A DNA stretch of 54,849 nt from an uncultured Hippea sp. (GTDB lineage: Bacteria > Campylobacterota_A > Desulfurellia > JAADFJ01). The translations under genes were made by a program, and so were the position numbers. Every line of letters begins with the position of its first letter. The stretch's first letter is position 1. The notes beneath the pieces were generated by a model that was not told the DNA's origin, searched no databases, and saw only the letters and a program-made list of their open reading frames with translations. This document shows positions 8,965 through 54,849 of this stretch, piece after piece. The stretch is from positions 1 through 54,849 of the forward strand of contig CAJVZA010000003.1 in assembly GCA_913009315.1 (NCBI GenBank). The letters run 5' to 3'.

Positions 8965-10713
8965 TTATGATACTTTGTACATAAGAAGGTCGCCTTTTGT
9001 TATTATGCCTAACAGTCTTTTGGGATTATCTTCATCTACAACAGGGAGATGTGAAATTCCGTTTTCCCGCATCTTCCCGAGTGCCTGATCAAGAGTTTCA
9101 TAGGGGTATGTCAAGATCAGATTTTTGCTGCAGGCGTCAAATGCGGATAATGCCATATCGCTGTTTTTTTCTCTGTGCTGCAATACGTCTCTGCCGCTTA
9201 TTATGCCCACCAGTTCATTTTTATCGTTCATAACGGGGAATCCTTCATGGCCTGTTTTCATGATCTTGTTGCTTATATCTTGAATTGATTCATACATATT
9301 TGCAGTTATCACATCTCTTATCATCACGTTTTCGACCGTTTCATTCTTCAGAACGTTTATTTCAAGGCCATGAGGTATAAAGACTCCCCGTCTGGCAAGT
9401 TTTTCCGTATAGATCGTATTTTTAGCAAAGATACGGCTTGTGATGTCGGCTAAAACGCATGCGAATATTAGCGGGATTATGATACTGTAGTCACGAGTCA
9501 TTTCAAAAACCATTATAATTGATGTCAATGTTGCGCGACTTGTTCCTGCAAATACAGCAGCCATACCTACCAGTCCATACGCAGGATAAGGGGCGCTCAT
9601 GTGAGGAAATAACAAATTGATAATAATACCAAAAAATGCTCCAAATACTCCTCCGATAAATAGCGAAGGCGCAAATACGCCGCCCGATCCTCCTGAGCCG
9701 AGTGTTAATGACAATGCAAACATTTTAGCGATTAAAAGTGCAAACAGGGTAAGCATAAGGTAAACAGTCGGGCTGCCATAATTAGGACTGAGTATGTTGC
9801 CTATAGTTTTATATCCTACACCAAGTATCTGAGGAAATTGGAGTGCTATAATCCCAAGTAACATGCCTCCGATAGCAGGTTTGAAAACGGGATGGACTTT
9901 TATCTTATCAAACAGATCTTCTATGCGGTAAAGCAGTTTAAATTCCAAAATTCCGATAAATCCTGCAGCAATACCCATTATAAGGTAAAATAGGAGTTCG
10001 TATACCGATTTAAAGTGATATGCCGGAATAATAAATATGGGGTCGCTTCCTAAAAATAATCTTGATATAATAGTTGCGAAAACAGATGATGTAGCCAGAG
10101 GAACAAACGATTCTGTTCTAAATTCGAGTAGAATTAACTCAATGGAAAAAATTATGCCTGCCAGCGGAGCATTAAATGTTGCAGCTATACCTGCAGTTGC
10201 TCCACAGCCTACTAATATCTTGCGGTCAGTAATAGAAAGTTTTAAAAATTGGCTTACAGCTGATCCAAACGCGCTTCCTATTTGAACTATGGGTCCTTCC
10301 CTTCCTGCCGACCCTCCTGTTCCAAGGCATATTCCGGAGGCCAGTGTTTTGGCAATTACAACTCGCGGACGAATTATGCCCTGTTTTTTATACATAGCTT
10401 CCATTACTTCAGGTACACCATGTCCTTTTGCTTCAGTGGCGTAGTAATAGGTAATGAATCCTACAATAAGACCTCCCATTGCAGGCGGTATGATTACTAA
10501 ATATCCTAAGCCATTGCTTACAGGCGAGACAAAATAAATTGATAATTTGTGCCAAAATGATAGGTTATTTATGCTGTAATACAACCACCTGAATAAAACT
10601 GCACCAAATCCGCCGACAATACCGACCGAAACTGCCATAAGATTTAATCTTAGATTAATATAAAGACTTTTTTTCGGAAACCCCTTGCCAATAGATGCTA
10701 TACTATATTTCAT
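8965..10713 (-). CDS. ClC-family chloride channel/transporter with C-terminal CBS pair
   Basis: GHGVPE, GREGP and GGVFAPSL ClC signatures; tandem CBS domains at the C-terminus. Confidence 0.93.
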   Translation of the reverse strand: MKYSIASIGKGFPKKSLYINLRLNLMAVSVGIVGGFGAVLFRWLYYSINNLSFWHKLSIYFVSPVSNGLGYLVIIPPAMGGLIVGFITYYYATEAKGHGVPEVMEAMYKKQGIIRPRVVIAKTLASGICLGTGGSAGREGPIVQIGSAFGSAVSQFLKLSITDRKILVGCGATAGIAATFNAPLAGIIFSIELILLEFRTESFVPLATSSVFATIISRLFLGSDPIFIIPAYHFKSVYELLFYLIMGIAAGFIGILEFKLLYRIEDLFDKIKVHPVFKPAIGGMLLGIIALQFPQILGVGYKTIGNILSPNYGSPTVYLMLTLFALLIAKMFALSLTLGSGGSGGVFAPSLFIGGVFGAFFGIIINLLFPHMSAPYPAYGLVGMAAVFAGTSRATLTSIIMVFEMTRDYSIIIPLIFACVLADITSRIFAKNTIYTEKLARRGVFIPHGLEINVLKNETVENVMIRDVITANMYESIQDISNKIMKTGHEGFPVMNDKNELVGIISGRDVLQHREKNSDMALSAFDACSKNLILTYPYETLDQALGKMRENGISHLPVVDEDNPKRLLGIITKGDLLMYKVS

Positions 10714-51406: not shown

Positions 51407-51435
51407 TTGACAAGCAAAACCAAACAAAATAGAAT
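51407..51435 (+). promoter_or_regulatory. Sigma70 promoter for the riboswitch-dynamin transcript
   Basis: TTGACA-N17-TAGAAT, 14 bp before the aptamer. Confidence 0.8.
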
Positions 51436-51449
51436 ATCACTTTATTTGC

Positions 51450-51495
51450 GGTGATGGAGTTCGCCCAATCGCCTTTTTAGGCTGATAACTCCTGC
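51450..51495 (+). ncRNA. Fluoride riboswitch (crcB motif)
   Basis: GGTGATGGAGTTCGCC-CAATC-GCCT/AGGC-TGATAACTCCTGC: P1 GGTGA/TCGCC, P2 GCCT/AGGC and pseudoknot GGAGT/ACTCC. Confidence 0.92.
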
Positions 51496-51519
51496 AAACA
51501 ACAGTTATAAGGAGTTGGC

Positions 51520-53301
51520 ATGTCGGGAAACCATATTGGCAAGAGCAAAACAGCCGAATATGATAAAGAAGATTTTTTGCATAACACCATAAAGTGCTCT
51601 ATAGATGTTCTTGCTGAATCGGATATTGATTTTGAGCAGGAGATTTTTAAACTTAAAGCAATAGATGATCGTTTGGAAAATGAACGCTTTCATCTCGCCG
51701 TTTTGGGGCAGTTCAAACGCGGAAAAAGTACCTTTGTCAACGCATTGATGGGCGAAGAAATCCTGCCCTCTTCTGTTTTGCCTCTTACTTCTATTCCAAC
51801 TTATATTCAGTTCGGCAAACAGCGTTCGGTTGAGATATCCTTTGATGACAAAAGTGATAAAGAAACTCTGACCGATGATTCCGCAAGCAATCTAAACAGT
51901 TTTCTTGCACGATATGTAACCGAATCATCGAACTCTAAAAATCACCTTAATGTATCGTATGTCAATGTTTTTTATCCTTCCGAACTCCTTGAGAACGGTA
52001 TTGTACTTATAGATACGCCGGGAATAGGTTCCGTGCACGAACATAATACTGAAGCAACACTCAATTTTCTGCCCCAGTGCGACGCAGCAATTTTTGTAGT
52101 TTCCGTTGACCCTCCAATAACAAAAACAGAGATTGAATTTTTAAAAAAGATAGAGCAGAGTATTCCCAAGTTATTTTTCGTTTTGAATAAAATTGATTAT
52201 TTAAAAGGGCAGGATCTAACGCTTTCGATAGAGTTTTTAAAAAAGACGCTCTATAACCGCAATCATGCAAACATTGATAATATCTCTATTTATCCTGTCT
52301 CCGCTCTGATGGGCATCAATGCTGTGAAAGAAAATGATGTACAGAAATTAAAAGAAAGCGGAATTTATGATTTTAAGACTGAACTAATCAATTTTTTTAA
52401 AGATAAAAAGAAGGCGCTGCTCAACGAAGCGCTTCAGAAAAAAACAGATAATATTCTGAAAGCAGTTAGAATGAAGATTGATCTCGCAATTAAAGCGCAG
52501 AGAATGCCGCTGGAGGAACTAAATAACTGCCTTAATCTGTTCAACGAAAAGCTTTCTGAAGTAGAGACTCAAAAGGTTGTTGCCAGTGATCTTTTGAGCG
52601 GAGACAAGAGACGTTTGACGGCATCATTAGAAGAGTATGCCGAAAAGTTACGCGGCGAGGCAAGGACATATTTAAAAACAATTATGAAAGAAGCCTTCGC
52701 AAAAAACGGTTCGGGCGAAATTGATTACGACACAATTTATAATGCGGTTGCGGAACCTATTCCATCATACTTTGAACATAAATTCGGTGAGCTTTTCGAT
52801 GAATTTAATTCCAGGATAACCGAAATATTAAATCGTCATAATCAAAAATTAAATACTCTGACGCAATCTGTCTGGCAAGCGGCGGCAGATATTTTCAGCA
52901 TCAGCTATTATCATTTTGAAGGTTCCGGAACTATTTCCGGCAGATACAAACCGTATTGGACTACACACAAATGGGATACAAGCTTTACCCCAAACCCGGA
53001 AGGTATGCTCGAGCATTTTTTGCCGCAGAAAATGAAGAGACTGAGTATCGCAAAACGTGTCAATAAACAGATAGATCTAATTGTAATGCATAATGTGGAG
53101 AACCTTCGCTTTTCCCTGATTCAGAATATAAATACTCTCTTTGCCTCTTTTGCGCAGACATTTGATCAGAATATTGAGGAAACCATATCAAATATAAAAA
53201 ATGTTATATCTGAAACGGTTGAAAAATATAAAAATAGAACAGAATCGTCAGAGAAAAGTATCGTGAATCTCCAATCGGTTTTAACTCGTCTCATGCGCTA
53301 A
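51520..53301 (+). CDS. Bacterial dynamin-like GTPase
   Basis: G1 GQFKRGKS, G2 Thr (PLTS), G3 DTPG, G4 NKID, and a long helical C-terminus. Confidence 0.9.
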   Translation: MSGNHIGKSKTAEYDKEDFLHNTIKCSIDVLAESDIDFEQEIFKLKAIDDRLENERFHLAVLGQFKRGKSTFVNALMGEEILPSSVLPLTSIPTYIQFGKQRSVEISFDDKSDKETLTDDSASNLNSFLARYVTESSNSKNHLNVSYVNVFYPSELLENGIVLIDTPGIGSVHEHNTEATLNFLPQCDAAIFVVSVDPPITKTEIEFLKKIEQSIPKLFFVLNKIDYLKGQDLTLSIEFLKKTLYNRNHANIDNISIYPVSALMGINAVKENDVQKLKESGIYDFKTELINFFKDKKKALLNEALQKKTDNILKAVRMKIDLAIKAQRMPLEELNNCLNLFNEKLSEVETQKVVASDLLSGDKRRLTASLEEYAEKLRGEARTYLKTIMKEAFAKNGSGEIDYDTIYNAVAEPIPSYFEHKFGELFDEFNSRITEILNRHNQKLNTLTQSVWQAAADIFSISYYHFEGSGTISGRYKPYWTTHKWDTSFTPNPEGMLEHFLPQKMKRLSIAKRVNKQIDLIVMHNVENLRFSLIQNINTLFASFAQTFDQNIEETISNIKNVISETVEKYKNRTESSEKSIVNLQSVLTRLMR

Positions 53302-53350
53302 AGGAATTCATCATTATCAATAGTTTCGATATTTTCTCCGTTATTACATT

Positions 53351-53581
53351 GAGACTGCTTCGGCCTGCGGCCTCGCAGTGACAGAAAACAGAGGCCGTTG
53401 CCTTGAAATTTCCTTTTCGTCGTTGCGAGCGAAGAGCGGCAATCTCAGTTTCTTATGTATCACAGGCATCCTGCCTGTGTTCTCTTCTCTCTTTATCCGC
53501 ATTTGAGAAAAGATATTAAGAAAATCTTCTGATGAAGCGTATAAAATAAGGGCGACTCTAAGAGCCATATACGGTCATAGC
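53351..53581. repeat. REP cluster plus first copy (53437-53581) of a ~145-bp direct repeat
   Basis: 53351-53446 resembles 39991-40087; 53437-53581 is nearly identical to 54704-54849. Confidence 0.88.
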
Positions 53582-53680
53582 TTTAATAAAAGGAATTAAC
53601 AGTCGAATTAACAGGGTCAGATGACCCTGTGACCCTTGCACATAATGCGAGATACAACTCCCAAGATTTCCATCTATGAG

Positions 53681-53968
53681 TTAGAACTTTTTGTAAACGT
53701 GAGGATGCTTACCAATCATCACCAGATTAAGATAATGTCTATCAATTTTAAAAACCAACAACCAATCATTTTTAACATGGATTATCTCATAGGATTGCAT
53801 ATTTCCAGATAATATATGCCTCTTGAAACGTTTATCTATAGGTTGCCCATTTAATAAGTTATCGACAATTTTTTTTAACAGATTAAAATCTTTTGCAGAA
53901 TAGTTGCCGGATTTTTTATCTCTTTGAATATCCTTTTTGAAAGATTTCTCAATTCTTATTTCAAGCAC
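53681..53968 (-). CDS. yafQ: YafQ-family mRNA interferase toxin
   Basis: FKKD, H.LSGN, E.IHVK.DWLL..K and L...G.H motifs. Confidence 0.85.
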   Translation of the reverse strand: MLEIRIEKSFKKDIQRDKKSGNYSAKDFNLLKKIVDNLLNGQPIDKRFKRHILSGNMQSYEIIHVKNDWLLVFKIDRHYLNLVMIGKHPHVYKKF

Positions 53969-53972
53969 TTAC

Positions 53973-54224
53973 TTATATGCCTAAATCCTCCGCAAGCTCC
54001 TTTGCATCTTTATATATAGAACTGTTTCGATTATTGTCTATATTTTTAATTCTTGAGCTCAGTTCATCAGTTATAGAAAGATCAAAAGGAAATCTTTTCT
54101 CCATAGCAACCTTTGCCAAAAATATGTTAGTGGCATCACCAAAGCTCATACCAAAAGCAGCAAAAACCTTCTTGGCTTCTCTATAAAATTTATCTTCAAC
54201 TCGCACACTTGTTTGAATTTTCAA
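53973..54224 (-). CDS. dinJ: RelB/DinJ-family antitoxin
   Basis: SVRVE......A..VF..FGMS..DA.NIFL.......FPF motif; AAGGAGG RBS, TTG start. Confidence 0.85.
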   Translation of the reverse strand: MKIQTSVRVEDKFYREAKKVFAAFGMSFGDATNIFLAKVAMEKRFPFDLSITDELSSRIKNIDNNRNSSIYKDAKELAEDLGI

Positions 54225-54236
54225 TCTTCCCTCCTT

Positions 54237-54283
54237 GAATACACCATATGGAGTATTCTAATATAGGCTCACTTGTCTGTCAA
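54237..54283 (-). promoter_or_regulatory. dinJ-yafQ promoter and operator
   Basis: Minus strand TTGACA-N17-TAGAAT; palindrome GAATAC-A-CCATATGG-A-GTATTC (54237-54258). Confidence 0.75.
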
Positions 54284-54464
54284 GTGTTTTTTTGAAACAA
54301 TTTTAAGGAACTAACAAGGTCAGGTCTGGCCCCAAGGTCTTGAATTCAGTTATTCTTCTGATACTATTCAGACATTATGACACGTTCTTTAAGACTCTCC
54401 TTTGAAAACGCATTTTATCATATAATCGCAAGAGGCAGTAAAAAAAGAGAAATATCCAATGTTG

Positions 54465-54849
54465 AGAGGTTGTTGATAAACTCCTATGTGTCGTTGCGAG
54501 CACCGAAAGGTGCGTGACAATCCCTTTATTGTCAACGTTTTTTGAGATTGCTTCGCTTCGCTCGCAATGACCTTCCTTCTTTTGTCACTGCGAGGCCGCA
54601 GGCCGAAGCAGTCTCAGCTTCTTCGCGTATCACAGGCATCTTGCCTGTAGGTTTAAATCAGGGAGTTTTGTCAAATGCAAAGACACGACCCCAATATGTT
54701 ACTCGGCAATCTCAGCTTCTTATGTATCACAGGCATCTTGCCTGTGTTCTCTTCTCTCTTTAATCCGCATTTGAGAAAAGATGTTAAGAAAATCTTCTGA
54801 TGAAGCGTATAAAATAAGGGCGACTCTAAGAGCCATATACGGTCATAGC
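54465..54849. repeat. Composite REP array, inverted GGGGTC end and second direct-repeat copy
   Basis: 54465-54556 is an inverted relative of 40161-40248; GAGTTTTGTCAAATGCAAAGACACGACCCCA at 54663-54693; 54704-54849 repeats 53437-53581. Confidence 0.88.

Follow-up and report, generated by a model that had tools for sequence, protein, structure and literature searches.

A 54,849-nucleotide stretch of DNA from an uncultured Hippea sp. (GenBank assembly GCA_913009315.1, contig CAJVZA010000003.1, positions 1 to 54,849, hereafter the window) raises the question of why a fluoride riboswitch should stand directly before a gene for a dynamin-like protein (DLP), and whether the two belong together. An original prediction, made from the sequence of the window alone, had read positions 51407–53301 as a promoter, a fluoride aptamer and a translational platform that gate a stand-alone dynamin-like GTPase. 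We followed this reading up at the locus itself, in the relatives of the GTPase and in the genomes that carry them. Judged from the genomes compared here, the DLP family has a regular and dedicated place in the fluoride regulons of many bacterial phyla and of methanogenic archaea.

A fluoride riboswitch precedes the GTPase gene

The leader of the DLP gene opens with a sigma-70-type promoter, TTGACA-17-TAGAAT (51407–51435, + strand), that agrees with the consensus at 11 of 12 positions, in keeping with the near-consensus promoter originally described. Promoter-like matches are not themselves enriched in the region (12 matches versus 10.0 ± 3.0 in shuffled sequences), and both hexamers, −35 and −10, are unchanged in three relatives (L004, L005 and L091), the last of which encodes a protein 57% identical to that of the window. 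Five nucleotides separate the promoter end from the aptamer match (51441–51501, + strand). The Rfam fluoride riboswitch model (RF01734, crcB motif; gathering score 34 bits) matches here over its full length, positions 1–64 of 64, with 47.5 bits and an E-value of 4e-10 for the whole window, which bears out the claim of a complete aptamer. The same aptamer was recovered by a riboswitch search of the whole genome. The Rfam alignment shows base pairing in both aptamer helices and contains the cores GAUGGAGUUC and CUGAUAACUCCU.

Two alternative pairings, predicted beforehand, can be traced in this leader. The 5′ pseudoknot strand GGAGTT, in the first aptamer loop (51456–51461, + strand), aligns to the Rfam consensus GGaGUU. 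The 3′ pseudoknot strand AACTCCT (51487–51493, + strand) is also an anti-Shine-Dalgarno strand: in the minimum free energy fold of 51441–51535, in which both aptamer helices are kept, it pairs with the Shine-Dalgarno (SD) sequence AGGAGTT (51510–51516, + strand), located 3 nt 5′ of the ATG and sequestered in this predicted ligand-free fold. Eighteen nucleotides separate the aptamer from the DLP start codon (51520), which is on the same strand. No U-run is found 3′ of the SD hairpin, and therefore the platform would act on translation and not on termination.

In the mechanism that we propose, AACUCCU (51487–51493) would pair in the absence of fluoride with the SD sequence AGGAGUU (51510–51516), and initiation would be blocked. 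Binding of fluoride would draw AACUCCU into the pseudoknot with GGAGU (51456–51460), freeing the ribosome-binding site and allowing translation. The sequence fits the ON switch of this kind that had been suggested, and the design is retained in L091, whose leader has the same anti-SD/SD hairpin and the same layout. We consider a translational ON mechanism probable. The 120-nt leader is also identical at 115 of 120 positions to that of L004, while the synonymous sites of the gene have diverged between the two (dS 0.28).

The pairing recurs in three samples of genomes

The survey of relatives that had been suggested with the prediction was run in three samples. The first consisted of the best 80 of 562 relatives, which were searched in one genome per species; these 80 loci are the relatives nearest to the query and not a random draw, are approximately 35–43% identical to it, and represent methanogens as well as bacteria of many phyla. 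By source name, family members occur in Carboxydothermus hydrogenoformans, Moorella/Neomoorella species and Dethiobacter alkaliphilus. The second was the whole phylum of the window (37 genomes, DLP threshold E ≤ 1e-30), and the third comprised 81 genomes, sampled evenly within the archaeal class to which one of the carriers belongs (DLP threshold E ≤ 1e-60). Many of the sampled genomes are incomplete metagenome bins, and related genomes are not independent observations. All 80 relative loci were scanned with Rfam, and a permissive scan was performed on eight of them, namely the seven without an aptamer and L034.

An aptamer above the cut-off was found upstream of the DLP gene, on the same strand, in 73 of the 80 relatives, at a distance within 300 nt in 61 and of 384–2937 nt in 12. 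Aptamers below the cut-off lie directly upstream at L034 (33.3 bits), which is already among the 12, and at L010 (30.9 bits); counting L010, 74 of the 80 relatives have an aptamer. Ten open reading frames (ORFs) between a distant aptamer and the DLP gene were scanned, and included enolase (two), HAD-like hydrolase (two), DUF6062 (three), His_Phos_1 (one) and a TPR protein (one). Enolase, the HAD-like hydrolases and His_Phos_1 are known types of fluoride regulon genes, and DUF6062 is also among the intervening genes.

Within the phylum of the window, 22 of the 37 genomes encode a DLP, and 17 of these have an aptamer directly upstream, two of which score just below the cut-off. At two more loci, in G079 (among the 22) and G055 (not among them), the start of a DLP is cut by the contig end directly after the riboswitch. 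In total, the riboswitch precedes 19 of the 23 DLP genes in the phylum. In the archaeal class, a DLP was found in 14 of the 81 genomes and an aptamer directly upstream in all 14 (13 above the cut-off), and any riboswitch match at all was found in 11 of the 67 genomes that do not encode a DLP. The prediction had allowed that the dynamin might be the leftover first gene of an exporter or hydrogenase operon; in all three samples it is instead a conserved partner of the riboswitch. Both the identity of the aptamer and its conserved linkage to the GTPase gene can be regarded as practically certain.

A tree of 29 sequences resolved two deep DLP clades with full support, both of which are riboswitch-controlled, so that two deeply diverged groups of GTPases share one RNA control. 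The first clade holds seven proteins of other genera in the phylum, and the second holds the window's genus together with proteins of other phyla (the window gene was compared with L091 and L093–L099). This grouping of the window-genus GTPase with other phyla hints at gene transfer, or at an old duplication with later loss.

The controlled gene encodes a dynamin-family GTPase with its own C-terminal region

The ORF at 51520–53301 (+ strand) encodes the 593-residue protein that had been called dynamin-like (P0001), and Pfam Dynamin_N matches it with 106.9 bits (cut-off 27; E 1.5e-30) over profile positions 1–167 of 168. The GTPase domain spans residues ~59–270 (51694–52329, + strand; Pfam match at residues 59–224) and includes the sequences that we take to be motifs G1 (GQFKRGKS), G2 (T90), G3 (DTPG) and G4 (NKID). 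When 115 family members are aligned, G63, K69, S70, T90, D165–G168, K224 and D226 are invariant, N223 is conserved in at least 90% of the sequences, and conservation extends over the full length of the protein with a mean column identity of 56%. Compared with the 93% identical copy L004, the gene has a dN/dS of 0.11.

When the family profile was compared to the PDB, the best matches were the Nostoc BDLP (1e-36), a Campylobacter DLP (1.6e-23), the mycobacterial IniA (1.1e-21) and mitofusins, in positions ~35–350 only. Residues 341–593 (52540–53298, + strand) form a family-specific C-terminal region that has no Pfam family and no PDB relative by sequence. When 1.84 billion cluster representatives were searched with a profile of this region, 1018 matched at E ≤ 0.001, of which 322 reached E ≤ 1e-30; among the best 150 matches, those proteins that are full-length have the region at residues ~340–600 of 590–630. 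Composition in 30-residue bins revealed a loop rich in aromatic residues, proline and glycine (residues 451–510; 52870–53049, + strand), in which W480 is invariant and P478, Y479, W485 and P502 are conserved in at least 90% of the 115 sequences. This loop is the sole candidate that we saw for a site of membrane contact.

A feature search in the ESM Atlas, starting from the homologue P0003, returned dynamin-family clusters alone. The NCBIfam models for DynA (NF052648, 79.4 bits versus a cut-off of 1600) and CrfC (NF007368, 33.1 bits versus 1146) match far below their cut-offs. No other dynamin-like gene was found in the source genome (assembly of 1.74 Mb, 87.6% complete), in which the riboswitch-gated copy stands alone. 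By its motifs and profile matches, the protein is a catalytically intact, soluble or peripheral DLP GTPase of the BDLP/mitofusin/IniA branch, belonging to a family of ~600-residue proteins.

The best solved relative, BDLP of Nostoc punctiforme (PDB 2j68), is similar in size (695 residues compared to 593) and aligns at profile positions 35–346, which comprise the GTPase domain and the first helices. However, the C-terminal 250 residues have no detectable similarity to it, and the family described here is under riboswitch control. IniA (PDB 6j72) is a dynamin-like GTPase of ~600 residues whose similarity is limited to residues ~37–354. It is induced by chemical stress, is thought to protect the plasma membrane, and is part of the iniBAC operon under protein regulators, whereas the gene studied here stands alone behind an RNA switch. 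DynA of Bacillus subtilis, whose NCBIfam model matches weakly, belongs to the same superfamily and has been proposed to repair or fuse membranes under stress; it is a two-headed fusion of ~1190 residues, while the protein here has one head.

The fluoride regulon of the genome and its phylum

The classical units under fluoride riboswitches (crcB/Fluc, eriC-F/CLC-F, Na+/H+ antiporters, enolase, pyrophosphatase and formate-hydrogen-lyase-like operons) have the same RNA family, the same position in a 5′ leader and the same ON logic as the DLP locus; they differ from that locus in that its riboswitch governs a dynamin-like GTPase. The source genome contains two fluoride riboswitches. The second one (40.3 bits) heads a six-gene operon of the formate-hydrogen-lyase-like type that is located outside the window (contig C17:16087–22715, − strand; locus L088) and encodes a NuoH-like subunit, two antiporter-like subunits, a hydrogenase-large-subunit-like protein and two proteins without a family. 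Its leader has the same SD-sequestering hairpin design as that of the DLP gene. A riboswitch lies just upstream of the first gene of this operon in all 26 phylum genomes that have the gene, and all 45 riboswitch matches of the phylum are thereby accounted for: 19 before a DLP and 26 before the hydrogenase-like operon.

The hydrogenase-large-subunit-like protein (P0124; L088:2531–3760, − strand) matches Complex1_49kDa at 1.5e-20 and NiFeSe_Hases at 2.7e-5, and its C-terminus reads FADCAR, without paired cysteines. Nickel-binding hydrogenases carry such paired cysteines. Because P0124 ends without them, the six-gene complex may be of a nickel-free, hydrogenase-related type.

The DLP gene stands alone in the window and in most of the loci of the phylum. 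At 59 of the 80 loci of relatives, an ORF of 60 residues or more starts on the same strand within 300 nt 3′ of the DLP stop codon. When 52 downstream ORFs of at least 90 residues were scanned, 11 encoded Na+/H+ exchangers, four MFS proteins, four HEAT repeats, two enolase, and one each MutS domain V, DUF190 and DUF6062; neither CrcB nor ClC was found among these 52 same-strand ORFs. Na+/H+ antiporters are, according to a 2024 review (PMC11139923), the commonest class associated with fluoride riboswitches after the exporters.

CrcB was not found in the source genome (0 of 1). It is present in one of the 37 genomes of the phylum and in 11 of the 50 carrier genomes of relatives in which it was sought (this search covered 50 of the 80 loci). 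That the GTPase might stand in for Fluc was considered and rejected, as in the evenly drawn archaeal class CrcB occurs in five of the 14 DLP carriers versus 11 of the 67 non-carriers. Since CrcB is not scarcer in the carriers, its low rate belongs to the lineages and the GTPase is no substitute for Fluc.

The ClC gene of the window (8965–10713, − strand) encodes a protein with CBS domains that matches canonical ClC at 7e-47 and CLC-F (6d0j) at 5e-9, and the original statement that it is not of the CLC-F type was therefore correct. CLC-F proteins are not known to have CBS domains. Both ClC proteins of the source genome have them, and both are far nearer to canonical ClC than to the solved CLC-F. 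In the window ClC the GREGP motif is canonical and another motif reads GHGVP; its counterpart in E. coli ClC-ec1 is presumably GSGIP, in which case a histidine would replace the chloride-coordinating serine. A short ClC type without CBS domains, with open frames of 420–449 residues, is present in 16 of the 37 phylum genomes (for example L110, G081:C239, and L111, G063:C1) and was not found in the source genome. One such protein matches canonical ClC (1.5e-10) and CLC-F (1e-6) equally weakly. In view of its occurrence in 16 of 37 genomes, we do not claim that the organisms of this phylum lack an exporter.

Discussion

The pairing of the riboswitch with the DLP gene indicates that the microbial response to fluoride has a component of this kind. 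Taken as a whole, the explanation that we favour, and think somewhat more probable than all others together, is that a fluoride ON switch here governs a dedicated DLP of the fluoride regulon, which acts at the membrane. The protein would assemble on the cytoplasmic membrane and seal or reorganise it during fluoride stress, alongside ion-translocating proteins that are induced by the same type of riboswitch, namely Na+/H+ antiporters and, in the phylum of the window, the hydrogenase-like complex.

The specific function, upkeep of the membrane under fluoride stress, is a more tentative proposal and falls somewhat short of an even chance. We favour it because all solved relatives of the DLP are membrane-remodelling GTPases, because its co-regulated neighbours are membrane ion transporters, and because it is the sole dynamin-like gene found in the genome and would be made only under fluoride stress. 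Diverse bacteria lyse in response to fluoride, according to the abstract of a preprint (10.1101/2025.02.28.640611).

A broader proposal, which we hold to be rather unlikely, is that there is a membrane-based route of fluoride tolerance apart from the known exporters, in which the GTPase would be the remodelling component, possibly activated by metal fluoride. As the regulon of the phylum consists of two units and Fluc is missing in 36 of its 37 genomes, cells may survive fluoride through the state of the membrane and the balance of ions and protons.

Several observations weigh against a switch-controlled GTPase that works at the membrane. Six of the 80 relatives and four of the 23 DLP genes in the phylum have no aptamer nearby. 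Taken over all 95 nt, the fold has a modest z-score (−1.74), and a classifier based on exact complements, applied to 63 related leaders, labelled 14 as SD-sequestering and four as terminator-like and left 45 unclassified, from which we draw no inference. No hydrophobic segment was found in P0001, in which the highest hydropathy over 19 residues is 1.11, and by the same measure a hydrophobic paddle of the BDLP type cannot be recognised. The profile of the C-terminal ~250 residues matched only noise in the PDB (E 0.47 and 4.9). Finally, the 93% identical DLP gene of one other genome in the window's genus (L005:4001–5786, also G080:C20:462–2244) is split in two frames. The split lies near codons 475–516 and is due to a frameshift or an assembly error; the riboswitch there is intact.

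The neighbours of the DLP genes also allow a different role, in which the DLP inserts, clusters or organises the membrane complexes that are induced with it, that is, Na+/H+ antiporters, MFS transporters and the six-gene hydrogenase-like complex. The division of all 45 riboswitch matches of the phylum between DLP (19) and hydrogenase-like operon (26) agrees with such a helper, as does the fact that elsewhere the Na+/H+ exchanger leads the downstream neighbours (11 of 52). Yet, at the 80 loci, no downstream ORF within the 3-kb flanks was a hydrogenase-like subunit, and many DLP genes, including that of the window, stand alone. We know of no dynamin-like protein that has a helper role for such complexes, and consider this explanation unlikely.

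Fluoride might act on the protein as well as on the RNA. In this case a metal fluoride together with GDP would lock the G-domains in a dimer, and the DLP would be a fluoride-activated tether or sink that is gated twice. Its occurrence almost solely behind fluoride riboswitches would suit such a protein, but trapping requires beryllium or aluminium in vitro, a sink would have to keep up with fluoride at millimolar levels, and no residue of the DLP family could be tied to fluoride. In cells, magnesium fluoride may trap GTPases in the manner of the beryllium and aluminium complexes. A comparable case is mitofusin-1, which dimerises with GDP/BeF3− (PMC5147005). We give this double gating a distinctly low probability.

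The original prediction had offered, as a second option, that the switch compensates for a housekeeping GTPase that is inhibited by fluoride by raising its amount, as has been proposed for enolase and pyrophosphatase. These two fluoride-inhibited enzymes are regulon members according to the 2024 review (PMC11139923), and enolase shares operons with the DLP in some relatives. Against this option, no dynamin-like gene other than the gated copy was found in the 87.6% complete genome, so that housekeeping would have to rely on leaky expression; moreover, 67 of the 81 archaeal-class genomes do without the family, and all 14 copies in that class are behind riboswitches. Compensation is thus disfavoured, and we rate it slightly below even the double gating by fluoride.

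That the switch is a mere remnant or serves another gene, for which one could cite only the six relatives and four in-phylum genes without an aptamer, is already contradicted and has a negligible probability, as the aptamer lies on the same strand immediately before the DLP start, its 3′ strand pairs with the SD sequence of the DLP, the upstream neighbours are tRNA-Glu and tRNA-Gln genes on the opposite strand, the pairing recurs in three samples, and the leader is more conserved than the synonymous sites.

A dedicated DLP of the fluoride regulon, which we prefer to these alternatives, appears to be new to the lists of genes under this riboswitch. The regulon lists in the available portions of Weinberg 2010 (PMC2864571) and of the 2024 review (PMC11139923) hold no dynamin-like GTPase, and the string "GTP" occurs 0 times in the latter. 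A full-text search found no literature link between the fluoride riboswitch and dynamins, although an entry under a name such as "GTPase" in Baker et al. 2012 is possible. No paper on the fluoride response of a bacterial dynamin was found among the matches listed. One of them, PMC5147005, uses fluoride in metal-fluoride nucleotide analogues and, as ammonium fluoride, for crystallisation. In PMC9971707, a match for the fluoride riboswitch together with GTPase, the two terms are unrelated to each other.

For most bacterial dynamin-like proteins no role is known, since hardly any conditions have been found in which they are needed. A riboswitch-gated family would supply such an eliciting condition, fluoride. 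Fluoride biology, in turn, would gain a component outside the two groups of exporters and inhibited enzymes, one that follows 19 of the 45 riboswitch matches in the phylum of the window.

Surroundings of the locus in the window

The DLP had been described as the only gene downstream of the riboswitch. No + strand gene was found 3′ of it up to the end of the window, in agreement with this description, and what follows is a RelB/YafQ pair on the − strand. A terminator-like hairpin followed by a T-rich run (53461–53479, + strand) is located 160 nt past the DLP stop codon, within the direct repeat D2/D3; its role is uncertain because it sits inside a repeated element.

The RelB/YafQ toxin-antitoxin pair (53681–54224, − strand) is flanked by direct repeats of ~145 nt (53437–53581 and 54704–54849) that are 97–98% identical, and the region 53344–54849 also contains inverted repeats of 37 nt and 29 nt. 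Such an arrangement resembles a small cassette, or else an intergenic element that is repeated.

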